DNA of 64,000 nucleotides from Candidatus Omnitrophota bacterium (lineage in GTDB: Bacteria > Omnitrophota > Gorgyraeia > Tantalellales > Tantalellaceae), in contig WJMG01000091.1 of the NCBI GenBank assembly GCA_014728075.1, positions 13,181 through 77,180 of the forward strand, written 5' to 3'. The position numbers and the translations under genes were made by a program. Below, piece after piece: positions 1 to 51,187 of this stretch (its first letter is position 1; every line of letters begins with the position of its first letter). Under the pieces are notes generated by a model. It worked only from the letters and a program-made list of their open reading frames with translations, did no database searches and had not been told where the DNA came from.

Positions 1-2373
1 GACCATCATCCCCGTACTGCCGGGGACATCAGGGGCGATGTAGATGTTTTCAAGGAAGTCGGCGCTACCGTGTCCATACTGCTTGAGATACTGGAGGAAA
101 AGGGTAAACTCGACCTGACGCCTCTTGAAGCGACACTCATGCTGATAGGTATCTACGAGGAAACCGGCTCTCTTTCCTATTCAACCACGACAAAACTGGA
201 TGTTGACATGGTCAGCCGGCTGCTTGATATGGGAGCCAATCTGAATGTAGTCTCCTCTTACCTCAACAGGAACCTTGACGGCAACGAGCTTACGGCGCTT
301 ATAGAACTGCTGGGTTCGACCGATGTGGTTAATGTGAACGGTGTTAACGCCGCTTTTTCCCTGGTCGATTCCGAACGGCTTGACGGGGAAATGGGGACGG
401 TTGTCCATAAACTGCAGGATGTAGAGAACTATCCGGTGCTTTTCGCGATGTTCGTTTCCGGTGAGAAAGTAAAGATACTGGCCCGGAGCAGGATAGAAAT
501 GATAGATGTTAACCGCCTGTTGTCCAATTTTAACGGGGCGGGCCATTCCTCGGCGGCAAGCGCCAGGGTAACCGGAAGGGACCCCGATGAGATCAAAGGG
601 GAGATCGTATCCCTGCTGGGAGGCGTGTTGCAGCCGGAGGTTTTCGCGAAGGATATAATGACCGAAGAAGTAGAGACCTTTTCTCAGGATGAGCTGGTGG
701 CCGATGTTAAGGCCAGACTTGAGGAAAAAGGTTACGAGGGCGCTCCGGTAGTCGACGATAAAGGGCATCTGGCGGGGATGATAACTCAGAGTGACCTTAA
801 AAAAGCCGTTAACAGGGGTATGGGGCATTCGCGGATAAAGGGATATATGGCCGTTAACCTTAAGACCGCCTCACCGGACACATCACTTCTGGAACTCAAG
901 GAGATGATGATGTCCGAAGGCATAGGCAGAGTGCCGGTCATCGATAAGGGAAGGATGACGGGTATAGTGACCAGGACCGATGTCCTGAAAAAAGTGCACG
1001 GCGTGCTCTTCGAGGACAAGGCCTCTTCGGGAGCTGCGCACATGGACCTGGCCCCCCGGATGCGCGATCTTCTTCCCGCAAAGCTTCTGGAATTCATAAA
1101 GTTCATAGGTGAAGAGGCGGATTCTTCCGGAATAAACGCTTTTCTTGTCGGAGGCTTTGTCAGAGACCTGCTTCTCGGCAAAAAGAAAAATTACGATCTC
1201 GATGTTGTGGTGGAGGGGGACGCTATAGGATTCGGAAGGAGTATAGCCGACAAGATAGGGGCCGCTCTCGTGATACACAGGAAGTTCGGGACCTGTACGG
1301 TGGTCAGGGACTGGCCGAGATGGCTGGGCAAGGCCCTGCACCCCGATAATAAATTCAAGATAGATATAGCTACCGCGCGGGAAGAAACATATGAGAGCCC
1401 GGCGGCTTTGCCGACGGTAAAGTTCAGTTCTCTCAGGGAAGATCTGTACAGGAGGGATTTTACCATAAACGCTATGGCCGTAAATATCAATAAAAAGAAC
1501 TTCGGGTTCTTCCTGGATTTTTTCGGCGGCAGGACGGATCTGAAAAACGGTACTGTCAGAGTGCTTCACGATAAGAGTTTTATAGACGATCCCACGAGGA
1601 TATTCAGGGCGGTACGCTTTGAGCAGCGGTTCGGTTTTGTCATAGAAGGGCATACCGAATATCTGATAAAGCACGCGGTAAAACAGGAAATGTTCAAGAG
1701 GACCGAGAACCAGAGGATCAGGGACGAGCTCAAGCTCATGCTTCAGGAAGAAGACCCGGAAAAAGCGGTTTTCAGGATGAAAAGCCTTCACGAGCTCAGG
1801 TTCATACATCCGGAACTGGTGCTGCGGAGATCCATAAAAAGGTATTTCCGGGAGATCCGAAAGGCCGTTGAATGGTACCGGAAGGAAGCGTCGAACCCCC
1901 GTAAGCTTGACAGGTGGATAATGTACCTTATACTGGTCCTGGACAGCCTGACCGGTAAACAGCTGGAGGAGGTCCTGGACAAATTCGTTTTCACGAGAGG
2001 GGAAAGGATACGGCTGAGATCTTCCAAAGGCAGGGCCCGCCGGGCGCTTAAAAGGTTTTCGTCAAGGGGGAAGATGTCCCCGAGCCTGGTTTACCGGCTG
2101 CTGGAGCCTCTTTCCCACGAGACAGTTCTATGTATGCTGGCTAAAACAAGGTCAGTCCCCGCGAGAAAAAGGATAAGGAAGTTCCTTTCGGAGTACAACG
2201 GGACCAGGCTTGCCATCAGGGGGCAGGATATAAAAGAAATGGGTATAGAGCCCGGCCCCGAATACAATGATCTTCTTAAAAAGGTACTTTACGCCAAGAT
2301 CGACGGGAACCTTGACGGAAAAAAGGAGGAAATGCGGTATCTGGGGCAGCTTGTGAAAAAGAACCCTTCGTAG
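1..2373 (+). CDS. Multidomain DHH/DHHA1 - CBS pair - poly(A) polymerase/CCA-adding nucleotidyltransferase family protein. The 5' end is truncated by the window edge; the frame is open from nt 1.
   Basis: The N-terminal region (IYEETGSLSYSTTTKLDVDMV...) resembles the DHH/DHHA1 core of the NrnA-like protein at 2819. The middle has CBS-pair motifs (GAPVVDDKGHLAGMITQSDLKKAV; IGRVPVIDKGRMTGIVTRTDVLKKV). The C-terminal half has the polymerase-beta head motif GGFVRDLLLG...DLDVVVEGD plus a tRNA-NT tail. No stop codon occurs between nt 1 and 70 in this frame. Confidence 0.7.
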   Translation, partial: DHHPRTAGDIRGDVDVFKEVGATVSILLEILEEKGKLDLTPLEATLMLIGIYEETGSLSYSTTTKLDVDMVSRLLDMGANLNVVSSYLNRNLDGNELTALIELLGSTDVVNVNGVNAAFSLVDSERLDGEMGTVVHKLQDVENYPVLFAMFVSGEKVKILARSRIEMIDVNRLLSNFNGAGHSSAASARVTGRDPDEIKGEIVSLLGGVLQPEVFAKDIMTEEVETFSQDELVADVKARLEEKGYEGAPVVDDKGHLAGMITQSDLKKAVNRGMGHSRIKGYMAVNLKTASPDTSLLELKEMMMSEGIGRVPVIDKGRMTGIVTRTDVLKKVHGVLFEDKASSGAAHMDLAPRMRDLLPAKLLEFIKFIGEEADSSGINAFLVGGFVRDLLLGKKKNYDLDVVVEGDAIGFGRSIADKIGAALVIHRKFGTCTVVRDWPRWLGKALHPDNKFKIDIATAREETYESPAALPTVKFSSLREDLYRRDFTINAMAVNINKKNFGFFLDFFGGRTDLKNGTVRVLHDKSFIDDPTRIFRAVRFEQRFGFVIEGHTEYLIKHAVKQEMFKRTENQRIRDELKLMLQEEDPEKAVFRMKSLHELRFIHPELVLRRSIKRYFREIRKAVEWYRKEASNPRKLDRWIMYLILVLDSLTGKQLEEVLDKFVFTRGERIRLRSSKGRARRALKRFSSRGKMSPSLVYRLLEPLSHETVLCMLAKTRSVPARKRIRKFLSEYNGTRLAIRGQDIKEMGIEPGPEYNDLLKKVLYAKIDGNLDGKKEEMRYLGQLVKKNPS

Positions 2374-2439
2374 AAACGCGTACTTCCGCGCCGGACTTTC
2401 GCGTGCGCGGACGGGGCGGATGAGTGGAGTGACGATATC

Positions 2440-2832
2440 ATGGACAGGATGAACAGGGTGGCGAAACTTATAATGATGGAAATAAGCGTTCTTCTGCAGA
2501 AAGAAGTTAACGATCCGCGGGTAAGCGCCATTACCATCACCGATATCGAGATAACCAGGGACATGAGGCTCGCGAAGATCTACTATGTACCCGCTGTTTC
2601 GGACGCTAACGAAAAAAAAGAGGTATCCCGCGGCTTGAGAAGCGCTTCGCGTTTTCTGCGGGGTGAACTCGCCAGAAGGATGTCCATGAAATATACGCCG
2701 AAACTGTCTTTCCGGGAGGATATTACCGAGGAAAAACAGAGGACGGTCGATGAGCTTTTCGAGAGGATAGAGAAAGAGCCGGGTTTCAGCGGCGGAGAAG
2801 AACAGAAAGGGGCGCAGGATGAGGACAGATGA
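2440..2832 (+). CDS. rbfA: Ribosome-binding factor A
   Basis: MDRMNRVAKLIMMEISVLLQKEVNDPRV...ITITDIEITRDMRLAKIYY is typical RbfA. Synteny with truB, rpsO and pnp supports it. Confidence 0.9.
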   Translation: MDRMNRVAKLIMMEISVLLQKEVNDPRVSAITITDIEITRDMRLAKIYYVPAVSDANEKKEVSRGLRSASRFLRGELARRMSMKYTPKLSFREDITEEKQRTVDELFERIEKEPGFSGGEEQKGAQDEDR

Positions 2833-3796
2833 CATGAAAAGCGTGGCGCGGGTTATCAGGGAGAACAGGAATTTCCTTATAAGCGCCCATATAAACCCGG
2901 AAGGTGATTCGATAGGAAGTCAGCTGGCGTTGAGCTTCATGCTGGGGGTAATGGATAAGCGGGCCTACATGATAGATCAGGACAGGGTCCCCGATAACCT
3001 TATATTCCTTCCCGGGGCCAAGAATATCCTTACCGAGCCTCCTGCTGATTTCGAGCCTGACGCCGCTTTGATAGTCGACTGTCCTGTCATTGAACGCACC
3101 GGGGATGTGTCCGGGTACCTGAAGAAGGCCGGTCTCATAGTGAACATAGACCATCATGTAAGCAACGAATATTACGGAGATGTCAACTGGGTCGAGGAAG
3201 GGTTCAGCTCGGTCGGTGAAATGATGTTCCACCTCGCGGGGGAGCTCGGTGTCCGCATGGAAAGAGTTCTCGCGGAGAATATTTACGCGGCTATAGTTAC
3301 CGATACGGGCATGTTCAGTTACAACAATACCTCAAGCGATACCCATCGCGTGACGGCGGAGCTGGTCGAGGCCGGAGTAGACCCGAATTTCATGCATGCC
3401 GAGATTTTCGAGAAAAAGGATCTGGCCGAGATAAAGCTTCTCGGAGAAGTGCTGAATTCCCTGGAGATATCAGAGGAAGGTAAGGTCGCTCACATAAAGC
3501 TTACCCGCGGCATGTACTCCAGGGTAGGGGCCGATAAAGTGGCTACTGACGAATTCATAAATTACCCCCGTTCCGTTAAAGGGGTGGAAATAGCTGTTTT
3601 CTTCAAGGAAAGTACCGGTGAGAAAGATAAGGTGTATGTGAGTTTTCGCTCCAACGGAAAGGTTGATGTTAACCGGCTGGCTTCGCTTTTCGGCGGCGGG
3701 GGCCATCAAAAGGCCTCCGGATGCATGCTTGCCTGCGGGATGGAAGAGGCCGTCGGGAAGGTCCTTTCCGAAGCCGAAAAGGTCTTGCAACAATGA
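2819..3796 (+). CDS. DHH/DHHA1 phosphoesterase (NrnA-like oligoribonuclease / pAp phosphatase)
   Basis: The DHH motif region (NIDHHVSN), a DHHA1 domain and the C-terminal GGGGH motif are present. The gene overlaps the rbfA stop. Confidence 0.8.
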   Translation: MRTDDMKSVARVIRENRNFLISAHINPEGDSIGSQLALSFMLGVMDKRAYMIDQDRVPDNLIFLPGAKNILTEPPADFEPDAALIVDCPVIERTGDVSGYLKKAGLIVNIDHHVSNEYYGDVNWVEEGFSSVGEMMFHLAGELGVRMERVLAENIYAAIVTDTGMFSYNNTSSDTHRVTAELVEAGVDPNFMHAEIFEKKDLAEIKLLGEVLNSLEISEEGKVAHIKLTRGMYSRVGADKVATDEFINYPRSVKGVEIAVFFKESTGEKDKVYVSFRSNGKVDVNRLASLFGGGGHQKASGCMLACGMEEAVGKVLSEAEKVLQQ

Positions 3797-4476: not shown

Positions 4477-5428
4477 CAATATCAGGCAGGAATTAAGGGA
4501 CCCGGTCGCGGCCATCGGTATGTTCGACGGTATACACCTGGGGCACAGGCGCGTTATCAATAAGGTGCTGCGGGCCGCCGGAAAGGACAGGGACGCCGCG
4601 GTCATCACTTTCGATCCGCATCCACAGTCGGTCATCGATCCGCGGAAGGCCCCGCCGAGGATCATGTCCCTTGAGCACAGGCTTCACATCTTCGAAAAGA
4701 TGAAACTGGACGCGGCCGTGGTCATAAAGTTCACCGGCGGCGTATCGTCGATGGGCCCTGAGGATTTTGTGGACAAGGTCATTTCCGGCATGGGGGCCCG
4801 AACGGTGTTCGTCGGCAGCAATTTCCGTTTCGGAAGCGGGAAGTCGGGTGATGTGAAGCTTCTAAAGGATATCGGCGGAAGCCGAGGTATAGATGTTTTC
4901 GAAGTAAAGCCGGTCAAAATGGGCGGGAGGGTGATAAGCAGTACCTGGCTGAGAAAACTTATTTCTTCGGGGGATATCGCAAAGGCCGAAAAGCTTCTAA
5001 GGAGGCCTCCTTCGGTGCTCGGGACCGTAGTGGAAGGAGACCGGAGAGGACGGTCTCTTGGGCTTCCGACGGCTAATATAGATCCGCACCAGGAGGTAAT
5101 ACCCCCGCCGGGAGTTTATGCCGTAAAAGTGGAGCTTGGAGGAAAACTCTTCAACGGGGCCCTTAACATCGGGTTTAAGCCGACCTTTTACGGGAGTAAA
5201 TTAAAAAAAAGAAAGGAGCCAAGCGCGGAAGTCCATGTTATAGATTATGACGGCAGTCTTTACGGGAAGACCCTGGAGATCTTTTTTATAAAGGCGTTAA
5301 GGAAGGAGAAGCATTTCCGAACCGAGAAAGAGCTGGTCTTTCAGGTGCGGAAGGATATGGAGAGAGCCAGGCAGCTGTTAAGTTCAAAAAGAACAAGCGA
5401 AAAGATAAGAAAATACAAAGATATCTGA
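4454..5428 (+). CDS. ribF: Bifunctional riboflavin kinase / FMN adenylyltransferase
   Basis: The N-terminal GMFDGIHLGHRRVI nucleotidyltransferase motif and a C-terminal riboflavin kinase domain are present. Confidence 0.9.
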   Translation: MRRLYGYDNIRQELRDPVAAIGMFDGIHLGHRRVINKVLRAAGKDRDAAVITFDPHPQSVIDPRKAPPRIMSLEHRLHIFEKMKLDAAVVIKFTGGVSSMGPEDFVDKVISGMGARTVFVGSNFRFGSGKSGDVKLLKDIGGSRGIDVFEVKPVKMGGRVISSTWLRKLISSGDIAKAEKLLRRPPSVLGTVVEGDRRGRSLGLPTANIDPHQEVIPPPGVYAVKVELGGKLFNGALNIGFKPTFYGSKLKKRKEPSAEVHVIDYDGSLYGKTLEIFFIKALRKEKHFRTEKELVFQVRKDMERARQLLSSKRTSEKIRKYKDI

Positions 5429-5572
5429 GAACAGGGTCCAGCCCGGCCCTATATATAAATAATTTGTTATAATGTTTACAAAATTATATTTGTGTGATAG
5501 TATAATGCGCGAATAAAAATAACTGCCGAAAACGGATATGATCCTTTTCGCGGAAGAAAGGAGGTGAGTTAA

Positions 5573-5842
5573 GTGTCGATCGTAAAGGAAAAGAAAAATG
5601 AGATCATAGGTACTTTTCGAAAACACGATAAAGATACCGGTTCAGCCGAGGTGCAGATCGCTCTTTTGAGCGAAAGGATAAATTCCCTGACTGAACACTT
5701 TAAAAAGCATAAGAAGGATTTTCATTCGAGAAGAGGGCTTCTGATGCTCGTAAGCAAAAGAAGGAAGCTTTTGACTTACCTTAAGTCCGTAGATAACGAT
5801 AAGTACCAGGAAGTTATCAAGAAACTCGGGCTCAGAAAGTAA
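5573..5842 (+). CDS. rpsO: 30S ribosomal protein S15
   Basis: 89 aa with [42 protein letters not shown] lies upstream. The gene sits immediately upstream of pnp. Confidence 0.95.
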
Positions 5843-5895
5843 TTAATGGTACATACATATAATGTTAACAGCAAGCTTAAGAAGGACAGGTATAC

Positions 5896-8004
5896 ATGAT
5901 TGATGTAAGAGCAGATCTGGGCAGGGAGCAACTCATTATTTCAACGGGGAAATTGGCTAAACAGGCAGGCGGTTCCGTTACGGTGCAGTACGGCGGTACT
6001 ATGGTGCTGGTGACATGCTGCTGCGCGAAAAAGGCAAAAGAAGCTATGGGATTTTTCCCGCTGACCGTGGAATATCAGGAAAAGACATTCGCGGCCGGTA
6101 AGATCCCCGGAGGATTTTTCAAAAGGGAAGGACGGCCTTCCGAAAAAGCGATTCTGACATCCAGGATGATAGACAGGCCGATACGCCCTCTTTTCCCCAA
6201 AGGGATGCTTAACGAGGTGCAGGTAGTGGTCACGGTGCTGTCGTACGACGGGGTCAACGATCCCGATGTCCTGGCCCTTACGGGCGCCTCTGCCGCTCTT
6301 ACTATATCGGAAATACCTTTCGAAGGTCCCATCGCGGGAGCGAGAGTGGGAATGGTCGACGACAGGTTCATCCTCAATCCGACAGCCGAAGAGATGGAAA
6401 AGAGCACTCTCGATGTTATACTTGTCGCGAACGAGGAGAGCGTCATCATGCTGGAGGCCGGGGCGGAAATGGTCTCCGAAGACAGGATGGTAGAAGCGAT
6501 AAAGTTCGGCCACGAGGGGATCAAGCCGCTTTTAAAGATACAGGACGAGCTCAGGGAAAGGGCGGGCAAGCCCAAGAGAGAGGATATAACCATTGTCGAG
6601 CTCGACCAGGAACTTTTCAAGAAAGTTAAGGAAAAGTACTCTTCAAAGATAAAAGAAGCTCTTCAGATAGTCGATAAGCAGCAGAGAATAGAAGAGCTCG
6701 ACAGCCTTGAAGCCCAGCTGATCGAAGAAGAAGCCGACCCGGAGAAGGAAGGTCTCGAGGCCGACCTGAAGCTGGCGTTCGCCGAGGTGGAGAAGGACCT
6801 GGTCAGGGAAGTCATATTAAAAGACCGCAAGAGGATAGACGGAAGGCAGTTCGATGAGATAAGGCCTCTTTCTTCCGAGGTCAACATGCTTCCAAGAACA
6901 CACGGTTCCGCTCTTTTTACCAGGGGGGAAACACAGGCGCTGGCCGTAGTTACACTGGGTACGGTGGCCGACGAGCAGAGGATCGATGCCCTGGAAGGCG
7001 AAACAACGCGTTCGTTCATGCTGCATTATAACTTTCCTTCTTTCAGCGTAGGCGAGACCAGACCGATGAGAGGACCGGGGAGGAGAGAGATCGGGCACGG
7101 CGCGCTTGCCCACAAAGCTCTTACTCCCGTTCTGCCCGAACCGGAGAATTTTCCTTATACCATAAGGATAGTTTCCGAGATACTGGAATCGAACGGTTCA
7201 AGTTCCATGGCCACCGTGTGTTCAGGGTCAATGTGCCTTATGGGCGGCGGTGTCCCCATAAAGGAATCCGTAGGCGGTATAGCCATGGGCCTGGTCAAGG
7301 AAGATGATAATTACGCTATTTTAACGGACATAGCCGGCGCCGAAGACCATCTCGGTGATATGGATTTCAAAGTTGCGGGGACCAGGACCGGTATAACCGC
7401 GGTGCAGATGGACCTGAAGGTCAAGGGTATTAACTACGACATACTTAAAGAGGGGTTCGAGAACGCCCGGAAGGCAAGGCTCAGTATAATCGACCATATG
7501 GAGCATACCATAGCGCGTCCCAGGGAAGACATGTCCCCGGATGCTCCCAGGATAGTCGTGGTGATGGTGCCGGTGGATAAGATCCGGGAAGTCATAGGCC
7601 CCGGCGGCAAGGTCATAAAGGGTATAATCGCGGAGACAGGCGCGGATGTTAATATAGAGGATGACGGGACCTGCCAGATAGCTTCCTCGAACAAAGAATC
7701 CCTGGACAAGGCCGTAGAGATGGTCAAAGGTCTCATTGAGGAACCGGAAGTAGGCAAGACCTACGAAGCTACAGTGGTCAAAATAATGGATTTCGGGGCA
7801 TTCGTCAGGTATATGCCCAATCAGGAAGGTCTCGTGCATGTTTCCGAAATATCCAATGAATATGTAAAGGATGTTCACCAGTTCCTGAAAGAAGGCCAGG
7901 AAGTGAAGGTCAAACTGGTCGGAATAGACGACCAGGGGCGGGCAAAGCTGAGCATGAAACAGGTTGAAGAGAAACAGGTTGAAGAGAATAAGGATACAGA
8001 TTAA
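5896..8004 (+). CDS. pnp: Polynucleotide phosphorylase
   Basis: 702 aa with two RNase PH domains, a KH domain and a C-terminal S1 domain (GLVHVSEISNEYVKDV). It follows rpsO as in the canonical operon. Confidence 0.95.
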   Translation: MIDVRADLGREQLIISTGKLAKQAGGSVTVQYGGTMVLVTCCCAKKAKEAMGFFPLTVEYQEKTFAAGKIPGGFFKREGRPSEKAILTSRMIDRPIRPLFPKGMLNEVQVVVTVLSYDGVNDPDVLALTGASAALTISEIPFEGPIAGARVGMVDDRFILNPTAEEMEKSTLDVILVANEESVIMLEAGAEMVSEDRMVEAIKFGHEGIKPLLKIQDELRERAGKPKREDITIVELDQELFKKVKEKYSSKIKEALQIVDKQQRIEELDSLEAQLIEEEADPEKEGLEADLKLAFAEVEKDLVREVILKDRKRIDGRQFDEIRPLSSEVNMLPRTHGSALFTRGETQALAVVTLGTVADEQRIDALEGETTRSFMLHYNFPSFSVGETRPMRGPGRREIGHGALAHKALTPVLPEPENFPYTIRIVSEILESNGSSSMATVCSGSMCLMGGGVPIKESVGGIAMGLVKEDDNYAILTDIAGAEDHLGDMDFKVAGTRTGITAVQMDLKVKGINYDILKEGFENARKARLSIIDHMEHTIARPREDMSPDAPRIVVVMVPVDKIREVIGPGGKVIKGIIAETGADVNIEDDGTCQIASSNKESLDKAVEMVKGLIEEPEVGKTYEATVVKIMDFGAFVRYMPNQEGLVHVSEISNEYVKDVHQFLKEGQEVKVKLVGIDDQGRAKLSMKQVEEKQVEENKDTD

Positions 8005-14639: not shown

Positions 14640-14688
14640 ACCACATATAGACCCACATCTATACATACTTGTCAGTTTTTCCCCTGGC

Positions 14689-14716
14689 TTGACACCTCAT
14701 TTTTTCCCTGTATACT
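14689..14716 (+). promoter_or_regulatory. Candidate sigma70-type promoter (TTGACA-N16-TATACT) upstream of the signalling operon
   Basis: TTGACA lies at 14689-14694 and TATACT at 14711-14716. The predicted TSS (about 14723) falls inside the first copy of the repeated TCAAAATACCTTG motif. Confidence 0.35.
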
Positions 14717-14963
14717 CAAAATACCTTGATAATTTATAACAAATCACATCAATAGCTACCTGTAAATATAGAAAAGCGGTGAATTGTATAAAAAGTAACG
14801 GCTTTTATAATTCTTGAACAAGGACTTTATAATGATAATTTATATGCTGCATATCTTCAGGCATATGCTGGAACATGTTGATATCCAAAGATATAGAAAA
14901 ACGGGTTCAGGGAACTCCGATCAAAATACCTTGTAAATTCAAATCGAATAAAGGGGTGGGAGA

Positions 14964-15149: not shown

Positions 15150-15162
15150 AGAAAGGATTCCC

Positions 15163-16536
15163 ATGGATTTTAATATCGCAGAAATAGATAATAGGAATAC
15201 TCCTAGAGTTCAATTAAATCTTCCTATTAAAATAAACAACAATAAGGGAGAAACAATAGATTTTAATGAATTAGGAATGGGATTTCGTACGCTAAATAAG
15301 ATTGAAAAAAGGGATTACAATGCAGAAATTAAACTAGATAGTGGGTGCATTGATTTTAATATTGAGATAATTTGGTCAAAGAAGGATAAAAAGTCAAATA
15401 CATACATCCATGGTGCAAAATTTTCAGAAATAAACCCTGTTAAGTTACAAAAAATAAGAAAAAAAGTTATTATCACAAAGTTGAAAAACACTATTAAATC
15501 TTTTTCTCTAAAAGCAGATAAGAAAGACTTAATGAGATTTTCAAAAGAAGTCTTAGCTTATTTGTCTTCCTTATATCATCTCTCAGAAAAACTAGATTCT
15601 GGCAATATGAGAGTTAAAAATGCATCAGAATTTTTAAAGACTAGAACAGACAAGGTGATGGAGGAAGCTAAAATTTTTCAAGATTCGATTAATAATAAAC
15701 TATTGGAGAAAAAAGCCAAAAAAGATTTTCGTGACCTGACGAGTTCTTGGGCCTATAAAGGGTTTATTGTTAAGAGATCTTTTGATAAGCCTCGAGGGTA
15801 TCCAGGTGATTTTAGGATAATGGAATATATTTATGACGAGATTTTAATATCAAAAGGGATTGGCCAGTGTTTTGATGTGTATTTCCAGAATAATGAATAT
15901 GCAGAAGCTGTTAGGAAAAGAAAAGACTGGATGAGGAGATATTTGGAAAATTTCATATCGGAAAAAAATAAGAAAAACATAAATATTTTAAATATAGCTT
16001 GTGGATCAAATCGAGAAATCAGAGAACTTTTGCATAATAAACCTTATGTTTATACACATCTTTCTGAAAAAGGAAAGAAAGTGATTTTGAATTTATTAGA
16101 TCAAGATAATGAAGCATTAGCCTTTTCTAACTTAAATCTAAAGTCTTTTAATCGTTTCGTTGACATAAGATTGCTTGATAATGATATTATGGATTTAACA
16201 AAAGAAAATGAAGTTCAAATTAATCAAAGCATGGATTTGATTTATACAATTGGATTGGCAGATTATTTACCAGACAGAATCTTGGGAAAGTTGCTCAATA
16301 GATGTGTGGATAATTTTTTAAAAAAAGATGGGAAGTTAGTTATTGCTCATAAAGATATTTCTCGTTATAGACCTATGCCTCCAAACTGGTTTTGTGATTG
16401 GAATTTTTATTCAAGAAATAAAGATGATTTAAATAATCTACTAAAAAAACATGTTGGATTTGATACTGTTGATGTTCAGTATTACAGAGATGATACTGGA
16501 ATTATTATTTTCGCAGAGTTGACAAAAATAAAATGA
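15163..16536 (+). CDS. PilZ-domain :: class I SAM-dependent methyltransferase fusion protein (putative c-di-GMP-responsive methyltransferase)
   Basis: The N-terminus has RNTPR (RxxxR) followed 19 aa later by DFNELG (D-x-N-x-x-G, a variant of PilZ DxSxxG). The C-terminus has methyltransferase motif I (ILNIACGSNREI), an acidic beta2 (LNLLDQDNE) and post I/III motifs (IRLLDNDIMDL; MDLIYTIGLADYL). ATG 15163 has a GAAAGGA RBS. The gene is markedly AT-rich. Confidence 0.6.
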   Translation: MDFNIAEIDNRNTPRVQLNLPIKINNNKGETIDFNELGMGFRTLNKIEKRDYNAEIKLDSGCIDFNIEIIWSKKDKKSNTYIHGAKFSEINPVKLQKIRKKVIITKLKNTIKSFSLKADKKDLMRFSKEVLAYLSSLYHLSEKLDSGNMRVKNASEFLKTRTDKVMEEAKIFQDSINNKLLEKKAKKDFRDLTSSWAYKGFIVKRSFDKPRGYPGDFRIMEYIYDEILISKGIGQCFDVYFQNNEYAEAVRKRKDWMRRYLENFISEKNKKNINILNIACGSNREIRELLHNKPYVYTHLSEKGKKVILNLLDQDNEALAFSNLNLKSFNRFVDIRLLDNDIMDLTKENEVQINQSMDLIYTIGLADYLPDRILGKLLNRCVDNFLKKDGKLVIAHKDISRYRPMPPNWFCDWNFYSRNKDDLNNLLKKHVGFDTVDVQYYRDDTGIIIFAELTKIK

Positions 16537-18692
16537 ATTTTCTAGCCTTTACTGGATTAATTAACTTTATTACCTGTATCGCTTTAGGTCTTTTTGTTCT
16601 TTTGAAAGGATTTAAGTCTCGCCAAAATATCACATACTTTTTTTTAAATGTAAGTGTTGCTGTTTTTAGCTTGGGGTATTTTCTCTGGCAAATAACATCC
16701 GATCTTTCAGCTGTTCAATGGTTTAAGTTATTAGTGGTAGGTATTATTTTAATTAATCAAGCATATCTTATTTTTGTGTTTACTTTTTTAAATATAATTA
16801 AACGCCATAAAGTACCATTGACCATATGTTTTGCATTGAACTTATTTTATATCTTTGCAAATTACAAAGGATGGTTGTACCAAGATTTTCTAAATAAATT
16901 CGAATTAGGTATTTGGCCGATTCCAACAAATTTATTTGTGTCATATCTTATTTTTTGGGTTGTTCAATGTGTTTATGGGTTTATTTATTTATTTATTAAT
17001 GCAAATAAAGGCTCAACGAGAAGAAGATTGCAAATAAGGTATTTCACAATAGCGGCAGTTGTTGGATTTCTGGGAGGCGCGACTAATTGGCCTATTTGGT
17101 TCAATATATATTTTCCTCCGTACGGTAATATCTTAATAAGTTTATATATCGCAATTGTTGCTTATGCAATTGTTAGGCATCAATTGATGGATATTAGCGT
17201 AATTGTAAAGAAAACGATAGTTTTTGCCGGTTTGTTTATAGCTTCGTACGCGGTTTTTGCAAGTTTTGCTTATATCGGTCTAGGCGTTATAGAAAACTTT
17301 ACTAAAAATAGATGGATAGCAATGCTGCCTTCGGTATTTGTTGTAGTTGTTATGTTGCGGCCGTTAGAGAGTTTTTTGAGGAATGTTACCGATAAATTCC
17401 TCTTTCAAAAAAAATACGATTATAAGACATTGCTCAAGACCTTTGCCGACGATGTCCTGATGGTCCTTGACATGAACGAACTTGTCAACCTTACCGTTAA
17501 TAAATTAACCGAGATCGTAAAGCTGGAGAACGCCACGATCTTGCTGAGCTCGGGGGAAGACGGCGATTTTAGCATAGTGGCCAGTTCCGGAATGGAGGAC
17601 CCCGAATATGAAATAACTTCAGGTTCCGGGATAAGCGATCTGCTTATGACAAAACCCGATTATCTTCTTTTTGAGGACTCCTCCGATACCGATAACTATG
17701 ACAATGAAGTCAGGCGTGCTATGAAAGACCTTCAGGCCCGGCTTCTTATCCCGCTTGTCCACAGGAACCAGGTAGTGGGGCTGCTTACCCTTGGAAAGAA
17801 GAAGTCTGATGAGGAATTCAGCCAGGACGACATCGATATCCTTCTTCCCATATCAAGGACGCTTTCCATAGCCATCGCCAACGCCAGGCTGTTCGAGCAG
17901 CTATCCGAAGCCCAGGCACAGGCGGCGCAGAGGGAGAAAATGGCCGTTATAGGCACGCTTTCGGCCGGGATCAATCACGAGATCTGCAATCCCCTGGGTA
18001 TCGCCAGGGGGCAGTGCGAGATGTTCCTTCTTAACCTTAAAGAGGGCCTTTACGACGCTAAAGACCCCGAAGAGCTTCTTTTGAAAGCCCGGGAGATAAT
18101 GGAGAAGGTCATAACCGAAACCGACCGGGCGACCGTTATTACACGCAAGCTTTCCTCCTTCGCCAAACCGGCAAAGGGGAACCTCCGGGAAGGCGTAGTC
18201 GTGGCCGAGGAACTGAGAGAGGTGATTTCGCTTCTCGAGCATGATCTCAGGCTGGATAATATAGAGATCGTAGAGGATTTCGGCGGCGATGTCCCGCCGA
18301 TAGTCGCCGACAAAAAACAGCTTCAGGAGATATTTTTCAACCTGATAAGGAACGCGGCCCAGTCGATCAAGGCGGAGGGCGCGATAATACTGCGGACCCG
18401 GTCTGACAGGGGCAGGGTTTCTGTCGAGATAGAGGATACGGGAGAGGGAATAAGTGAAAGCAACCTTAAGCGCATATTCGATCCGTTCTTCACGACAAAA
18501 GACCCGGGTAAAGGCACCGGTCTCGGGCTTTTTATCGTCAAGCAGATCGTTGAGAGGAACAACGGCCGAATATCGGTTGCCAGCGAATCCGGGAAGGGGA
18601 CCGTGTTCTCGGTCGTATTCGGTTCCGTTAAGGGCGCAGGCCTTTTTGCCGGCGGAGAGGACGGCGGGAAAAGAAAGGTAGCGGTTAAATGA
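16533..18692 (+). CDS. Sensor histidine kinase with N-terminal 7TM sensor module, GAF domain, HisKA and HATPase_c
   Basis: About 230 aa of polytopic N-terminus paralogous to the HK at 20828-22432. A GAF-like middle domain. The H-box INHEICNPLGI and the G-boxes DTGEGI...GTGLGL are present. The gene overlaps the upstream stop (ATGA). Confidence 0.85.
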   Translation: MNFLAFTGLINFITCIALGLFVLLKGFKSRQNITYFFLNVSVAVFSLGYFLWQITSDLSAVQWFKLLVVGIILINQAYLIFVFTFLNIIKRHKVPLTICFALNLFYIFANYKGWLYQDFLNKFELGIWPIPTNLFVSYLIFWVVQCVYGFIYLFINANKGSTRRRLQIRYFTIAAVVGFLGGATNWPIWFNIYFPPYGNILISLYIAIVAYAIVRHQLMDISVIVKKTIVFAGLFIASYAVFASFAYIGLGVIENFTKNRWIAMLPSVFVVVVMLRPLESFLRNVTDKFLFQKKYDYKTLLKTFADDVLMVLDMNELVNLTVNKLTEIVKLENATILLSSGEDGDFSIVASSGMEDPEYEITSGSGISDLLMTKPDYLLFEDSSDTDNYDNEVRRAMKDLQARLLIPLVHRNQVVGLLTLGKKKSDEEFSQDDIDILLPISRTLSIAIANARLFEQLSEAQAQAAQREKMAVIGTLSAGINHEICNPLGIARGQCEMFLLNLKEGLYDAKDPEELLLKAREIMEKVITETDRATVITRKLSSFAKPAKGNLREGVVVAEELREVISLLEHDLRLDNIEIVEDFGGDVPPIVADKKQLQEIFFNLIRNAAQSIKAEGAIILRTRSDRGRVSVEIEDTGEGISESNLKRIFDPFFTTKDPGKGTGLGLFIVKQIVERNNGRISVASESGKGTVFSVVFGSVKGAGLFAGGEDGGKRKVAVK

Positions 18693-19495
18693 ACATTCCG
18701 TACGGAGCCGGAGAGGGAGGCAGGAAAGCGATCCTCTCTATAGATGACGAAACCAGTTTTACGGAACTGCTCAAGGGGTATTTTGAGCTGAGAGGCTACA
18801 GGGTCGATGTCACCAACGACGGTTCCAAGGGGCTTGAGCTCGCGAAAAGGAACCGGTACGATGTTGCGCTTCTCGACCTTAAAATGGAAGGCATGGACGG
18901 GGACGAGGTCATGCGGAAGATGAGGCGGATAAATCCCCGTACAAGGACTATATTCATAACCGCTTACAACGATTCGGGCAAGACCCGGAAGAGGCTTCTT
19001 GACGAAGGGGCCTTCGCGTTTGTGGAAAAACCGATCTCTAGCCTTAAAGACCTGGAGGAAACGGTCAGGCGGGCCGTTGAACCTCCCACAAAGAAAGGGG
19101 CTGACGCTATGCTTAAGATCCTGGTCGTGGACGACGAGATAGATATCTGTGATTTCGTGAAAAATTTTTTCAAGGACAGGAATTTCGAGGTTTTCGTGGC
19201 CCACGACGGCAGGGAGGCGCTCAACCTGGTCGAGTCCAGGAGACCCGATATAGTGCTCCTGGATGTCAAGATGCCCGTCATGGACGGCATGCAGGCCCTG
19301 AGGGAGATAAAGAAAGTGAACAGGAAAAGCCGGATAATAATGATCACGGCGGTGAACGATACCGACAGGATAGAGGAAGCGAGGCGACTCGGTGTGTACG
19401 AGTACATAACCAAGCCTCTTTTGCTGGAACAGCTGGAAAGGACCGTGCTGACCGTGGCCGAAGAGATAAAAATGGAGGAGACAGAGGGTGAATAA
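18689..19495 (+). CDS. Response regulator with two tandem receiver (REC) domains and no output domain
   Basis: REC1 has ILSIDDETS...VALLDLKMEGMDG and REC2 has KILVVDDEIDI...IVLLDVKMPVMDG. The gene overlaps the HK stop (ATGA). Confidence 0.85.
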   Translation: MNIPYGAGEGGRKAILSIDDETSFTELLKGYFELRGYRVDVTNDGSKGLELAKRNRYDVALLDLKMEGMDGDEVMRKMRRINPRTRTIFITAYNDSGKTRKRLLDEGAFAFVEKPISSLKDLEETVRRAVEPPTKKGADAMLKILVVDDEIDICDFVKNFFKDRNFEVFVAHDGREALNLVESRRPDIVLLDVKMPVMDGMQALREIKKVNRKSRIIMITAVNDTDRIEEARRLGVYEYITKPLLLEQLERTVLTVAEEIKMEETEGE

Positions 19496-20837
19496 CTCTA
19501 CGAAAAACGACAATTTCGCGCAGGAGAATAACTGGCTTAAGCTGCAGGACTGGATATCGGAAAAGATAAGGAGCTGCGACGGCGGCCTTATCCCCATGGA
19601 CAGCGACCTCGGCAGCAGGAGAGAAGAACCGGAGCTTGATTACCAGTACTTTCTCGAGAACGCGTCCAGGACCATGATACGCTTCAAGAAGGTGGAGCAC
19701 CTGATAAAGATGATCGTGCGCACCATCGACGAACAGGTAAAGGTCACTCATACGGCCATGCTGGTCCTCAGCAGGGATAAAGACTGCTTTAACCTTATCG
19801 ATTCCAAAGGCGTGGAGGGGATGAAGATACCCGTGGGGTTTATCCGCCTGACCTTTACCAACCCGCTGGTGAAATTATTCAACGAGAGGCGGAATTTCAC
19901 GATCTCCGAAACCGGGGCCGTAAGCTACAAGGGTCTGCTGGATTCGCTTACGAGGAACGAAAAAGTGGCCGGTAACACCGGGCTGTCGGAGCTTGTGAAA
20001 CTTTCGATAAAGCAGATGGAGCTTCTCAAGGCCACCCTGTGCGTCCCGATATATTACAAAAAGGACCTTCTCGGTGTCTTTGTCCTGGGGAAAAAGCTTT
20101 CCAACATGAGCTTCTGCAGGCAGGAGATAAGTTTTTTCGGAACGCTCGCCAACGATGTCGCCATGGCCATTTCGAACGCCAATCTCATACAGGACCTGCA
20201 GGAGAAGATATACGAGGTCCACGAGCTTTACGAAAGGGAGCACCGTATATTCATCAATACTTCGATCTCGCTTGCGGCCGCTATAGACGCCAGGGACCCG
20301 TATACCCACGGCCATACCGAACGAGTGACCCAGTACGCGCTTTCGATATCCGAGGAGCTTGACGATCTGCCGGAAGCACAGGCTTACCTGAACTTCAGGG
20401 AAACCCTGCACATAGCGGGCCTCCTCCACGATGTGGGGAAGATAGGAGTACCGGACAGTATATTGAACAAGGAGGACCAGCTTACTTCAGAGGAGTACGA
20501 ACGGATAAAAGAACACTCGCTTACAGGCGCGGCGATACTTTATCCGATAAGCGAACTGAAAGGCGTGTGCAACGAGGTGCGGGCGCATCACGAAAGATAC
20601 GACGGGGAAGGCTATCCTGACGGGCTGAAAGCCGACGAGATACCTTTCGTCGCGCGGATAATCGCCGTCGCGGACACCTTTGACGCCGTAACCAGCGACA
20701 GGCCGTACAGGAGGAAAAAACCGGCCGAGACGGCCGTCAGGATAATAGAGGAAAATTCGGGAACTCAGTTCGACCCGGTAGTTGTAAGCGCTTTTCTGCT
20801 GGCATATAAAAAAGGCAAGTTCAAGAATTATGTCTGA
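19488..20837 (+). CDS. HD-GYP domain c-di-GMP phosphodiesterase with N-terminal GAF-like domain
   Basis: HGHTERV...HDVGKIGVP...HHERYDGEGYPDGL (HD plus GYP motifs) are present. The GTG start overlaps the upstream gene end. Confidence 0.85.
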   Translation: MNNSTKNDNFAQENNWLKLQDWISEKIRSCDGGLIPMDSDLGSRREEPELDYQYFLENASRTMIRFKKVEHLIKMIVRTIDEQVKVTHTAMLVLSRDKDCFNLIDSKGVEGMKIPVGFIRLTFTNPLVKLFNERRNFTISETGAVSYKGLLDSLTRNEKVAGNTGLSELVKLSIKQMELLKATLCVPIYYKKDLLGVFVLGKKLSNMSFCRQEISFFGTLANDVAMAISNANLIQDLQEKIYEVHELYEREHRIFINTSISLAAAIDARDPYTHGHTERVTQYALSISEELDDLPEAQAYLNFRETLHIAGLLHDVGKIGVPDSILNKEDQLTSEEYERIKEHSLTGAAILYPISELKGVCNEVRAHHERYDGEGYPDGLKADEIPFVARIIAVADTFDAVTSDRPYRRKKPAETAVRIIEENSGTQFDPVVVSAFLLAYKKGKFKNYV

Positions 20838-22432
20838 TCTCCGGCAGGCAGCTCTATCCTGAAAGAGGCGCCTTCCTTTGTGCTTGAGACTTTTACCGAG
20901 CCCTCGTGTTTCTCTATAATACCGTGCACTACGCTTAAGCCTAATCCGGAACCTTCGTCCTTCCTGGAGAAGAAGGGGTCGAATATCCTCTTCAGGTCTT
21001 CCTTTTCTATCCCCGTGCCGGTATCGGATATTTCAACGAACACTTTCGTTCCTTCTTTCCCGGTCCTTATTACGATCGAACCCGGCGGGCGGATCGCGTC
21101 TTTCGCGTTAAGGAGAAGGTTGAGGAAAGCCTGTTTCAATTGGACCGGATCGGCGTTTATGCGGGGAAGGTCGGACAGGTGCCTTTCAACAGATATGTTC
21201 TTTCTGAGAAAATCGTTGTTCAGGAACTCGCAAGTCTCGTTTATCAAAAGATTAACATCCGTTCTGCGTATATTGAGGCTCGCCGGTTTTGAGAATTCAA
21301 GCAATTGCCTGACGATGTTGTTGATCTTGTCGACTTCGGCCGGGACTATCCGGCAGAACTTCTCTAAAAAAACGGGGTCGTTGTGCCGGGCGGGCAAAAA
21401 CTCGGAAAAGGTCTTTATCGAGGTTAAGGGGTTCTTTATCTCATGCGCCATGCCGGCGGCAAGGGTGGATATGGCCTTGAGCTTTTCTGCTCGCTGGAGT
21501 TCATTTCTCAACTTTATATTTTCTTCGTCGATTTGCGAGATGGATCCATGAAAGAAATATTTGTCTAAAAGATATTGAATTTTGTTTTTTATAGGATTAA
21601 ATAAAAAAAGGAAAAAACATAAAATAAACAAAGAGAAAGAAATAGAATGATATTTATAGTAATTTCTAAATATATGTTCGAGAATAAAGATGGTCGAAAT
21701 GTATAGTGCTAAAAGAGTTGAAACGATAACGCTATATATAACAGTTTTTTTAAAAACTATATTAATGTCGAGTAATTTGTGTGCAATAATGGTATAAGCA
21801 AGTATTCCGATATAAATTGTTAAAAGTAAATTTAAGTAAGGGGGGATAGGGATTTTAAAAAAAAGAAAATAATTAGTTGAACCGCCTAGATATCCTGCTA
21901 TCAATGCAATGACAATATATTTTATTTTATTTTTATTTGCTGAAGATGCTTTACGATAACATTTTAATGGTGTCACAATTGATAACATAGCATAAGTGAA
22001 AAAATATGCTAAAAAAACATAATAAATTGGGCCTGGAATTCCCCAGTATGGAAAAATGTCTACAGAACGCACGCCTGATATGAAATATGGCGTAAAAATT
22101 AATAGTGCGATAGTTGTTCCGAATAAATATCCTATAAAAAGCAATTTATCTCGTTTAATCTTTAAGAGAGTAGACACGAAATGAAAAGTAGTAATAGGTA
22201 TAAATACAGCGCCTAAATGTAGGAATCGAAACCAGAATAAAACTTTAATAGGGATTGTTGATAAGGGCCAAAAGATATATCCAAAACTCCAAATTGCTAT
22301 GAAGACATTCATTATTGAAAAGCGAAAATTAATTCTTGAATGGGGGTTTTTAGATAATACATAGACGGCTAAGATAAGTGCACCTATGAAATTTATTGCT
22401 CCAGATAGTGAAAAAAAATGTAAATAATTCAT
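20828..22432 (-). CDS. Sensor histidine kinase (7TM sensor module, HisKA, HATPase_c)
   Basis: The N-terminal polytopic domain is paralogous to the 16533 HK (compare AHKLLDINIVFKKT with RHQLMDISVIVKKT). The H-box MAHEIKNPLTSI and the ATPase G-boxes DTGTGI...GSGLGL are present. Confidence 0.85.
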   Translation of the reverse strand: MNYLHFFSLSGAINFIGALILAVYVLSKNPHSRINFRFSIMNVFIAIWSFGYIFWPLSTIPIKVLFWFRFLHLGAVFIPITTFHFVSTLLKIKRDKLLFIGYLFGTTIALLIFTPYFISGVRSVDIFPYWGIPGPIYYVFLAYFFTYAMLSIVTPLKCYRKASSANKNKIKYIVIALIAGYLGGSTNYFLFFKIPIPPYLNLLLTIYIGILAYTIIAHKLLDINIVFKKTVIYSVIVSTLLALYISTIFILEHIFRNYYKYHSISFSLFILCFFLFLFNPIKNKIQYLLDKYFFHGSISQIDEENIKLRNELQRAEKLKAISTLAAGMAHEIKNPLTSIKTFSEFLPARHNDPVFLEKFCRIVPAEVDKINNIVRQLLEFSKPASLNIRRTDVNLLINETCEFLNNDFLRKNISVERHLSDLPRINADPVQLKQAFLNLLLNAKDAIRPPGSIVIRTGKEGTKVFVEISDTGTGIEKEDLKRIFDPFFSRKDEGSGLGLSVVHGIIEKHEGSVKVSSTKEGASFRIELPAGDQT

Positions 22433-22443
22433 ATCATGGAAGA

Positions 22444-22803
22444 TTATTTTAATAAATTTCTTGTTTTTTCAAAAACTTCTGATTTGTTGAAAGGCTTGGA
22501 AATATATTCTACAGCTCCTAATTTCATTGCTTTTGTTGCCATTTCAACACTTTGATATCCCGTGATTATTATCACTTTCAGTTCCGGGGCTATTTTCCTG
22601 ATCTCCTCTAAAGTCTCAAGCCCGTTACGGACGGGCATTTTTATATCTAGAAGCAGGCCGTCGTAAGGGGCTTCTTTGATCTTGTTTACGGCTTCCGCGC
22701 CGTTATTCGCGAAATCAAGCTCGTAATCGTTTTCAAGGATAAGGTTCAGCGACTCGCGCACACCTTCCTCGTCGTCGCATATCAGTATCCGTTTTTTCTG
22801 CAT
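22444..22803 (-). CDS. Single-domain CheY-like response regulator receiver
   Basis: 119 aa with ILICDDEEGV...LLLDIKMPVRNGLE...KPF. It lies 11 nt upstream of the - strand HK. Confidence 0.85.
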   Translation of the reverse strand: MQKKRILICDDEEGVRESLNLILENDYELDFANNGAEAVNKIKEAPYDGLLLDIKMPVRNGLETLEEIRKIAPELKVIIITGYQSVEMATKAMKLGAVEYISKPFNKSEVFEKTRNLLK

Positions 22804-23422: not shown

Positions 23423-23586
23423 AAGATATCCTCCCGGATGGTGTTCTGTAAAAATACCTTCAAAACAAATATACCCTTTATTTTCTAAAAAATCAAATAA
23501 TATTTAATTATTTACAAATCGACCGAAGAGCCGGCAGGTCATTATAACTTGTTACTTGAGGTGGCATATGCTAGAATTATTCAACT

Positions 23587-35923: not shown

Positions 35924-35989
35924 CGAGGGTCGTCTCTCTGGCGGTCATTCTTTACTTATTTATACCGATGTGCTATTGTATCTTCTATT

Positions 35990-36307
35990 ATGCGCAAAGA
36001 TAAGAATAAATATTCTATATCCATAGAAGATGTATCGTACGCGGCGAGGCTTTCCCGTATTGAACTCGAATCCGATAAAATGGGAAAATTCCGGGAGCAG
36101 CTCAACGATATTCTTGTGTATATAGACCAGCTTAACGAGGTCGATACCGAAGGGGTCGCCCCCACCAGCCATGTTCTTACTTCCATGAGGAATGTTTTCA
36201 GAGAGGATGAGCCGGGCACTTCACTTCCGAACGAAAAAGCCCTGGCGAACGCTCCCGCAAAAAGCGGTAATTTTTTTAAAGTTCCGAAAATAATCAAAGA
36301 ATCCTGA
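35990..36307 (+). CDS. gatC: Asp/Glu-tRNA amidotransferase subunit C
   Basis: 105 aa with SIEDVSYAARLSRIELESDKM...LNEVDTEGVAPTSHV. It is immediately followed by gatA. Confidence 0.85.
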   Translation: MRKDKNKYSISIEDVSYAARLSRIELESDKMGKFREQLNDILVYIDQLNEVDTEGVAPTSHVLTSMRNVFREDEPGTSLPNEKALANAPAKSGNFFKVPKIIKES

Positions 36308-50601: not shown

Positions 50602-50831
50602 TCGGCCCAAAGGGAATCGTATCTTTCCCGGATCCCGGTCGAGGATTTCATAGAAAAGAGCCTGTATCGGAATGTTGTTTCTTGAACTTCCTGTCAACTT
50701 AACATGCTATGCGCTTTTTTCCCGGCGAGGTCCACGGAACGCAATAAATACTTGATATTTACGCTAAATTTAGTACAATATTAGTTCGCCTTGACATGCG
50801 TATAAATAAATATATATAAGGAGGGTTAGAA

Positions 50832-51077: not shown

Positions 51078-51187
51078 TCTGCTTAAGCGGCGTCAGATAT
51101 AGATCAAAGGCTAAAGGAACAATTTGACAGATGGTTGGCGGATCGTAAAGGATTTGCCAATCATGTTTTTTTATTAATTAATATTAT

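Follow-up and report, generated by a model that had tools for sequence, protein, structure and literature searches.

What can make the base composition of a bacterial genome change abruptly inside a single gene, close to the boundary between two parts of the protein that it encodes? The question is raised by a two-component locus in a 64,000-nt stretch of contig WJMG01000091.1 from a Candidatus Omnitrophota bacterium (hereafter the window; positions are counted from its first letter). There, an AT-rich block covers a gene for a methyltransferase with a PilZ-like N-terminal domain (PilZ-methyltransferase) together with only the seven-transmembrane (7TM) sensor part of the histidine kinase encoded immediately downstream, which we call HK1. 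In our reading, to which we give a probability of roughly 60%, the block is the variable enzyme-plus-sensor cassette of an otherwise conserved two-component locus, exchanged in frame and resembling the synthase/receptor pair of a pherotype system. The co-variation of enzyme and sensor and the in-frame swaps are observed in related loci; a signalling function for the locus is what we infer from them.

Composition of the block and its edges

Mean G+C across the window is 50.5%, and it falls to ~31% from nt 14629 to nt 17432, the two maximum-likelihood change-points in total G+C (log-likelihood ratios 60 and 72, respectively). An initial annotation made by eye had put segment 15150-17420 at about 30% G+C; the measured value is 29.8%, against 51.8 +/- 1.3% with a minimum of 46.5% for all other 2271-nt segments of the window (z = -16.5). 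The same annotation overestimated the flanks, which have 50-55% rather than 55-60% G+C, and set the left junction at the methyltransferase start, too far to the right. The fall begins at nt 14629, 10 nt ahead of the pgpA stop codon, and runs through the intergenic region and a short gene for a DNA-binding protein of the HTH_17 family.

The low G+C sits at synonymous positions, in keeping with the AT-rich codon usage that had been noted. G+C at third codon positions (GC3) is 0.24-0.25 in the PilZ-methyltransferase gene, compared with a median of 0.60 (sd 0.07) for the 51 long open reading frames (ORFs) of the window, and lies below 0.5 only in the PilZ-methyltransferase, HK1, a second 7TM kinase (HK2) and two minor ORFs, one a spurious antisense frame and the other in the gatC region. 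Within HK1, GC3 is 0.25 over codons 1-223, 0.34 over codons 224-285 and 0.63 over codons 286-719. A shift inside the kinase gene near nt 17420 had been predicted, and the total G+C change-point at nt 17432 and a two-segment likelihood fit to GC3, which places the change at codon 273 (log-likelihood ratio 49.5), bear this out. The last hydrophobic segment of HK1 ends at residue 282, close to the end of the AT-rich tract. The discontinuity seen in the G+C and GC3 profiles extends to the GC-normalised dinucleotide signature, in which the block deviates from its host (delta* of 0.122 versus 0.044 +/- 0.013, z = 6). As had been argued before, hydrophobic protein content is not the cause of the AT-richness, because the membrane-protein genes pgsA and uppP are GC-normal (GC3 of 0.61 and 0.53) and the methyltransferase, a soluble protein, is just as AT-rich as the sensor.

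The window contains a second block of this kind at 21500-22579, with change-points at both ends and a G+C of ~0.29. It covers the sensor part of HK2, on the minus strand, and the last ~45 codons of the receiver gene at 22444-22803. Near codon 290-300 of HK2, GC3 rises from 0.22 to 0.60, an in-frame compositional junction like that of HK1. The sensors of HK1 and HK2 are 29% identical and their cores 36%, so that neither block can be a recent copy of the other.

Two smaller features of the profile are recorded here. Part of the GAF domain of HK1 (residues 331-405, ~17523-17747) is only 10-35% identical in all orthologues, even those of the loci L001 and L004 introduced below, and its GC3 dips to 0.42 inside the otherwise GC-rich core. 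Minor AT dips at 5306-5919, 35947-36147 and 50637-51359 correspond to rpsO, gatC, rpmE and intergenic regions, and are ordinary.

Enzyme and sensor co-vary while the kinase core is conserved

We compared ~115 loci, of which 80 were retrieved with a methyltransferase profile and 35, from the same clade, with the conserved gene for an HD-GYP protein. Relatives keep the order pnp-dut-uppP-ftsK-rodZ-miaB-pgsA-pgpA-HTH17-[enzyme]-HK1-RR-HDGYP-HK2-RR-cupin-uvrA, where RR denotes a response regulator, and the 7TM-GAF-kinase architecture of HK1 is conserved over its full length across Omnitrophota. An exact-sequence look-up of HK1 gave no record; a Candidatus Omnitrophica metagenome-assembled genome encodes a protein 100% identical to it. 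The slot between HTH_17 and HK1 is occupied by a PilZ-methyltransferase in the window and in L001, L004, L008 and L019. Elsewhere it holds a PF12147 methyltransferase with a beta-ketoacyl synthase (L086), an acyl-reductase-like NAD_binding_4 protein with a GMC oxidoreductase (L094), a Methyltransf_11 enzyme (L096), an HMG-CoA reductase (L099), a radical SAM enzyme (L100), another acyl-reductase-like NAD_binding_4 protein (L101), Shikimate_DH-like dehydrogenases (L102 and L105) or a 4HBT thioesterase (L090 and L033). An IS200-type Y1 transposase gene (4542-5273, G+C 0.37) lies in the variable slot immediately upstream of HTH_17 in L099, and only there.

In loci with these other enzymes, the HK1 core is still 56-64% identical to that of the window and the sensor only 21-32%. 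Against relatives without the PilZ-methyltransferase, sliding identity is 10-40% over HK1 residues 1-195, jumps to 50-77% at residues ~205-215 and remains at 50-100% afterwards. In the 16 loci whose cores are orthologous, sensor identity does not follow core identity (r = -0.06) and differs with the type of enzyme, being 0.44 between loci with the same enzyme and 0.27 between loci with different ones (label permutation p = 0.00035). PilZ-methyltransferase loci of other lineages have sensors 50-53% identical to that of the window, with cores only 23-34% identical. Enzyme and sensor, the latter of the HisKA_7TM family (PF16927), form an exchangeable module that is swapped in frame at the sensor/core junction in this family.

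The compositional contrast recurs as well. With a hidden Markov model built for the sensor, we collected 65 non-redundant 7TM kinases from the fetched loci. GC3 is lower in the sensor than in the core in 59 of the 65 (mean difference 0.115, Wilcoxon p = 5e-11), and the gap is at least 0.25 in 11, which come from metagenome-assembled genomes (MAGs) labelled as several phyla. For the 51 kinases adjacent to an enzyme gene, enzyme and sensor GC3 are tightly correlated (r = 0.94, mean difference 0.037), more so than sensor and core GC3 (r = 0.60, mean difference 0.112), even though sensor and core belong to a single gene. Of the 11 loci with a strong intragenic change-point, 10 have it at codons 214-296, at or just after the boundary between variable and conserved residues and never before it; the exception, at codon 401 in L045, belongs to a much longer kinase of 1433 aa.

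Recent swaps are visible in relatives of the window. L096 and L097, which come from different metagenomes, share a 4542-bp stretch of DNA at 99.2% identity that begins at HK1 codon ~222; upstream of that codon they have no detectable similarity, and sensor identity is 30%. L096 and L100 are 89% identical from this codon onward. The HK1 sensor of L096 (gene 1181-3346) finds its match, 76% in DNA and ~80% in protein, in the sensor of a 541-aa HK2-type kinase of L100 (3832-5457), so that one sensor has been joined to two kinase cores. The crossover lies inside a 20-codon motif at the end of transmembrane helix 7 (TM7), YAI(I/M/L)RH(K/Q)(V/L)(M/L)DI(E/N)VVIK(K/R)TL. Judged from these alignments, the HK1 of L096 is a natural chimera, with a sensor like that of the HK2-type kinase of L100 and a core like that of L100 HK1 (89%), and it could have originated by recombination between two co-oriented kinases at the TM7 motif. 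The longest exact match between paralogous kinases at this motif is <=12 nt, which argues against a k-mer assembly chimera. The cassettes of L096, L097 and L100, three different ones on near-identical backgrounds, are all AT-rich, indicating that AT-richness comes with the cassette.

HK2 shows that a sensor is also swappable alone, with no enzyme beside it: in relatives, its sensor is 31-51% identical and its core 58-61%.

From these comparisons we propose that the cassette consists of one gene for a small-molecule enzyme and the first ~220-280 codons, encoding HisKA_7TM, of the next gene. The host core around it would be formed by HTH_17 on the left and, on the right, by transmembrane helices 8 and 9 (TM8-9), the GAF domain and the kinase core of HK1, a response regulator with two receiver domains (REC-REC) and the HD-GYP protein. 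The left crossover would fall in or before the conserved HTH_17 region, and the right one in the motif YAI.RH.LMDI.V.IKK at the end of the sensor or in the adjoining conserved TM8-9 stretch, with HK1 residues 224-300 as the presumed crossover zone. A right crossover in this conserved end keeps the frame and places a new sensor on an old kinase. HTH_17 may be a local regulator, or may merely serve as the left homology arm in cassette exchange. Horizontally mobile DNA is commonly AT-richer than its host, and the cassettes would likewise belong to a flexible gene pool, AT-shifted relative to their hosts as accessory DNA generally is. The copy in the window would have arrived by such a swap.

Origin of the copy in the window

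The initial annotation took the block for a horizontally acquired cassette recombined in frame at a domain boundary, and proposed checking whether the two halves of the kinase have best matches in different taxa. In-frame exchange at the sensor/core junction holds for the family; a recent import of this copy, private to the genome or foreign, is not supported. Searches with the two halves of HK1 disagree strongly further down the list of matches, but the best relatives of both are identical and of the same phylum, namely L001 (64% for the sensor, 62% for the core) and L004 (60% and 53%), and thus point to no foreign donor. The best matches of the methyltransferase, just 44-46% identical, are those same syntenic relatives from Omnitrophota. 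A word-indexed search with the sensor recovered just 8 short proteins and overlooked relatives already known; when the sensor alone was instead searched exhaustively with HMMER against 1.84 billion representatives, nothing exceeded 57% identity. These matches indicate that the cassette is not a recent acquisition, either private to this genome or from another taxon.

The alternative that survives best, unlikely as we hold it to be, is vertical inheritance under a local equilibrium shifted towards AT. The cassette would descend from an ancestor shared with L001 and L004; its segment would be too divergent to recombine with other alleles and would escape GC-biased gene conversion, or selection on it would be inefficient, so that it would drift to the AT-biased equilibrium of mutation, and the core would recombine and stay GC-rich. 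L001, the nearest species, fits this well, because it has the same pnp-to-uvrA order and the same two blocks at the same places, of the same type and equally AT-rich, despite housekeeping proteins only 60-77% identical. The finding that the best methyltransferase and sensor matches are syntenic relatives, with no closer donor, is in its favour, as are the AT shift of sensors relative to their own cores in 59/65 kinases, low-GC hosts included, the parallel GC3 dip to 0.42 in the hypervariable GAF residues 331-405, and a protein composition rich in F, Y, M, I, N and K residues (FYMINK fraction 0.42), which indicates long exposure to AT pressure. However, rodZ (42% identity, GC3 0.63) and pgpA (47%, 0.58) are as divergent and yet GC-normal, which rules out fast evolution alone as the source of AT-richness. 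In L004, a cassette of the same type shows no dip (GC3 0.53-0.57), the different cassettes of L096, L097 and L100 are already AT-rich on their near-identical backgrounds, and the dinucleotide signature of the block differs beyond G+C.

Several observations weigh against an exchanged synthase/receptor cassette, and it is possible that the copy in the window was inherited vertically. The loci were partly retrieved with the methyltransferase as bait, and locus pairs are phylogenetically non-independent. No relative closer than 76-82% protein identity was found, and swaps are demonstrated in other relatives and not for the window species. In the window, L001, L004, L008 and L019, all of the same cassette type, sensor identities (48-64%) roughly parallel core identities (49-62%), which fits inheritance from a common ancestor with AT-richness kept without amelioration. 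Sensors are AT-shifted in low-GC hosts too (0.32 versus 0.38), so that exchange among hosts is insufficient and an extra AT-favouring process is needed. The GC3 switch of HK1, at codon ~273, lies ~60 codons past the amino-acid variability boundary at residue ~205-215, the AT-rich tract running on into the conserved TM8-9 stretch; such an overrun is also the trace expected of a crossover within a conserved flank. With no enzyme gene beside it, the sensor of HK2 is still AT-rich and variable, which shows that a sensor need not have a synthase as partner. Finally, the link to the Ralstonia methyltransferase PhcB, considered below, is an annotation of its source, and both enzyme activity and ligand are predictions.

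The four strains of the L001 species (L001, L002, L003 and L006) are 99.96-99.995% identical, with few single-nucleotide polymorphisms, clustered in the gene for a cupin-XRE regulator, and being near-identical they are uninformative on cassette polymorphism. A difference in HK2 gene calls among them is a difference between gene callers only.

For the AT-richness itself, we favour an origin in the flexible gene pool with a contribution from a local AT-keeping process, the two being compatible.

A recent genomic island, private to this lineage, that came from a distant AT-rich organism and inserted between pgpA and the kinase core is improbable. The extreme contrast, sharp edges and deviant dinucleotide signature of the block are what such an island would produce, but locus and cassette type are syntenic in relatives, all best matches of both halves are Omnitrophota and the same relatives as those of the flanks, and the nearest methyltransferase and sensor representative among the 1.84 billion are only 46% and 57% identical. 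Moreover, the window contains no integrase, transposase or other mobility gene and no tRNA-type target, and a search for flanking repeats or att-like sites around both AT-rich blocks gave only short AT-rich matches at chance level.

Selection at the coding level, through AT-rich slow codons that aid membrane insertion or through low expression that relaxes codon selection, is very improbable. The AT-rich tract does end near the last transmembrane helix (residue ~282 in HK1) in both kinases of the window, but the soluble methyltransferase is equally AT-rich, the membrane-protein genes pgsA and uppP have GC3 of 0.53-0.61, expression cannot differ between the halves of one ORF, and L004, L009, L011, L035 and L043 encode the same proteins with no dip. 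An artefact of chimeric assembly or binning inside the conserved kinase gene, which a MAG and conserved kinase domains able in principle to mislead assemblers might invite, is more remote still, given the host-like sequence on both sides, the intact frame with overlapping start and stop codons, the absence of exact matches >12 nt between paralogous kinases at the junction motif, and the occurrence of the pattern twice in the window and again in independent assemblies (four near-identical contigs of the sister species, and L054, titled a single-amplified genome).

Gene content, proposed function and known systems

The cassette sits in an operon on the plus strand whose genes overlap by 4-8 nt, the methyltransferase stop and HK1 start sharing ATGA (Table 1). 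The minus strand encodes a cupin-XRE regulator, a single receiver and HK2 (HisKA_7TM, HisKA and HATPase).

Table 1. Position and character of the elements of the two-component locus in the window
Feature	Position	Strand	Characteristics
Intergenic region pgpA/HTH_17	14640-14963	.	G+C 0.34; promoter-like site; two pairs of short direct repeats (D2, D6, D17)
HTH_17 / excisionase-family DNA-binding protein, 61 aa	14964-15149	+	TIGR01764 59.6 bits; G+C 0.435, GC3 0.50
PilZ-like beta-barrel + class I S-adenosylmethionine (SAM)-dependent methyltransferase, 457 aa	15163-16536	+	G+C 0.286, GC3 0.24
HK1 HisKA_7TM sensor, residues 1-223	16533-17201	+	PF16927 at residues 12-221; GC3 0.25
HK1 residues 224-300: end of TM7 motif, TM8-TM9, linker	17202-17432	+	Protein conserved, DNA AT-rich (GC3 0.34)
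HK1 cytoplasmic core: GAF, HisKA, HATPase_c	17433-18692	+	Pfam; GC3 0.63; 56-64% across clade
REC-REC double receiver response regulator	18689-19495	+	Response_reg, two matched stretches, E = 3e-55; translationally coupled to HK1
GAF + HD-GYP protein, predicted cyclic di-GMP (c-di-GMP) phosphodiesterase	19488-20837	+	HD_5 E = 1.8e-42; HHERYDGEGYP motif
HK2 core (HisKA, HATPase_c)	20828-21499	-	Pfam; GC3 ~0.6, host-like
HK2 HisKA_7TM sensor + TM8-9	21500-22432	-	PF16927 42.5 bits; GC3 0.22
Single-domain response regulator upstream of HK2	22444-22803	-	tblastn 68% to L001 regulator

HK1 and HK2 match PF16927 with 30.3 and 42.5 bits (cut-off 28.6) and HATPase_c with 87 and 84 bits, respectively. 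The HD-GYP protein is 74% identical to that of L001 and 63-76% identical among relatives of the clade. At 84% identity to L001 and 67-84% within the clade, the HTH_17 protein is the most conserved of the neighbourhood. Against the NCBIfam MADS1 model it reaches 73.3 bits, slightly below the cut-off of 80.

The most likely start codon of the methyltransferase is ATG 15163, rather than the first ATG of the ORF at 15106. Its N-terminal region scores 21.2 bits against Pfam PilZ (PF07238), under the cut-off of 22.5, and PF07238 is present in many homologues, which also carry PF13847, PF12147 and PF08242. In the alignment, R11 and R15 (RxxxR) and G38 are invariant, and the second motif reads DFNELG, compared with the family consensus DxSExG. 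An AlphaFold2 model (pLDDT 89.5) predicts an N-terminal beta-barrel at residues 21-89. With this model, the top Foldseek match is 3ocj, and further matches include PhzM, SibL, SgvM, DnrK and the C-methyltransferase (C-MT) of CurJ, that is, O- and C-methyltransferases of natural-product pathways. A profile of the methyltransferase had no match among PDB sequences, and the NCBIfam models yielded nothing of use for this protein.

An enzyme for small-molecule and mostly lipid-type chemistry that always travels with its own polytopic sensor is most simply read as making the product, or using the substrate, that the sensor detects. We propose that the enzyme would make or modify a hydrophobic, probably lipid-derived small molecule, that the co-inherited 7TM sensor would detect it, and that HK1 would pass the signal on to the HD-GYP enzyme by way of REC-REC; through the PilZ-like domain, c-di-GMP could feed back onto the methyltransferase. 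The most likely function of the locus would then be that of a paired synthase and receptor for a hydrophobic small molecule, with a diversification like that of agr, comQXPA or phcBS. As in pherotype loci, the enzyme gene, whose product would make the signal, adjoins and is co-oriented with genes for a membrane histidine kinase and regulator; only the enzyme and the N-terminal sensor are hypervariable, and kinase core and regulator are conserved. Different alleles occur on one background in L096 and L097, and the strains of the L001 species are clonal.

The agr system is described as the strongest case of balancing selection, and in Ralstonia phcB (methyltransferase) and phcS (kinase) lie in one operon and are both under balancing selection (PMC6580516); the parts that diverge in Bacillus comQXPA are ComX and the N-terminal domain of ComP (PMC4624242). 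In the literature that we searched, no report of a low G+C in the comQXP variable region turned up. In Staphylococcus agrBDCA and Bacillus comQXPA, as in the window locus, it is the signal-production gene or genes and only the membrane sensor of the kinase that vary, the kinase domain and regulator being conserved; alleles differ between closely related strains, as they do in L096 and L097. Unlike in these systems, the sensor here is of an unrelated family, HisKA_7TM, and its partner is a small-molecule or lipid enzyme rather than a peptide precursor, and alleles differ even in enzyme family, at least ten Pfam families being represented. The output also differs, leading to an HD-GYP c-di-GMP enzyme, as do the host, which belongs to an uncultivated phylum, and the signal, which in our case is a proposed one.

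The Ralstonia phcBSR(Q) system is close in another respect. Its kinase PhcS senses the methyl 3-hydroxymyristate or 3-hydroxypalmitate produced by PhcB, and as in the window a SAM methyltransferase, a membrane histidine kinase and a response regulator share one operon. Some homologues of the methyltransferase carry the JGI function name '3-hydroxypalmitic acid methyl ester biosynthesis protein', the name of the PhcB function, as a label only. Unlike PhcB, the window enzyme has an N-terminal PilZ-like domain, and the likeness comes from gene order and this label; for phc, no compositional mosaic is reported in the literature that we searched.

In Vibrio CqsA/CqsS and Legionella LqsA/LqsS, an autoinducer synthase is encoded beside a polytopic kinase that binds a hydrophobic alpha-hydroxyketone within the membrane. 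The logic is that of the window locus, with different families of enzyme and sensor, and we know of no hypervariable slot with interchangeable enzyme families in either system. The shuffling of sensor domains onto conserved histidine kinase transmitters is an established pattern. Unlike in such shuffling generally, the joint here maps to a 20-codon motif, a swap is found between 99%-identical strains, and the sensor moves with an enzyme gene. What is new relative to known polymorphic synthase/receptor loci and to sensor shuffling is that the sensor family is uncharacterised, the enzyme families are interchangeable, the recombination joint is mapped and the phylum is uncultivated. Our literature search found no published description of a cassette of an enzyme and a 7TM sensor.

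More tentatively, and on balance with some doubt, the locus may be a plug-and-play device for chemical communication in Omnitrophota and, going by MAG labels, apparently in other lineages, one kinase/REC/HD-GYP pathway being re-tuned by swaps of synthase and receptor. If so, strains would differ in chemical dialect according to their cassettes, and the locus would be a small-molecule counterpart of peptide pherotypes; the HisKA_7TM family would gain a class of ligands, the products of the neighbouring enzyme; and the conserved motif at the end of TM7 would be a natural joint for in-frame recombination. HisKA_7TM sensors are widespread (2270 matches at E<=0.001 to the window sensor among 50%-identity cluster representatives), and the literature that we found naming the domain gives no ligand for it; the pairing and co-variation with a neighbouring enzyme lead to a testable guess at ligands. 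The mapped joint YAI.RH.LMDI.V.IKK, at which sensors have passed from one kinase core to another, is directly useful for engineering chimeric sensor kinases. For Omnitrophota, which are uncultivated, very small and possibly host-dependent, strain-specific cassettes would be the first hint of dialect-like signalling in the phylum. More generally, where GC3 changes sharply within a gene, the step can mark a module boundary and a flexible cassette even at a syntenic, native-looking locus.

Minor observations concern the regulatory DNA and the arrangement of neighbouring genes. A strong promoter-like site, TTGACA-16-TATACT, lies at 14689-14716, upstream of the HTH_17 gene, where two motifs also occur in pairs, TCAAAATACCTTG at 14716 and 14921 and ATATAGAAAA[G/A]CGG at 14766 and 14891. 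A related element, AAAATACCTTC, is found upstream of the cupin-XRE gene (23451-23465). These motifs may be shared operator sites, for which we regard them as candidates.

The REC-REC regulator is a single 268-aa ORF in the window (18689-19495) and two separate genes in L001 (12152-12917). L090 and L008 have two tandem HK2-type 7TM kinases with different sensors on the minus strand, downstream of the HD-GYP gene. In L100, a gene for an AbiEii-type toxin, the nucleotidyltransferase of a type IV toxin-antitoxin system, lies directly upstream of the HK2-type kinase, at 2415-3704.

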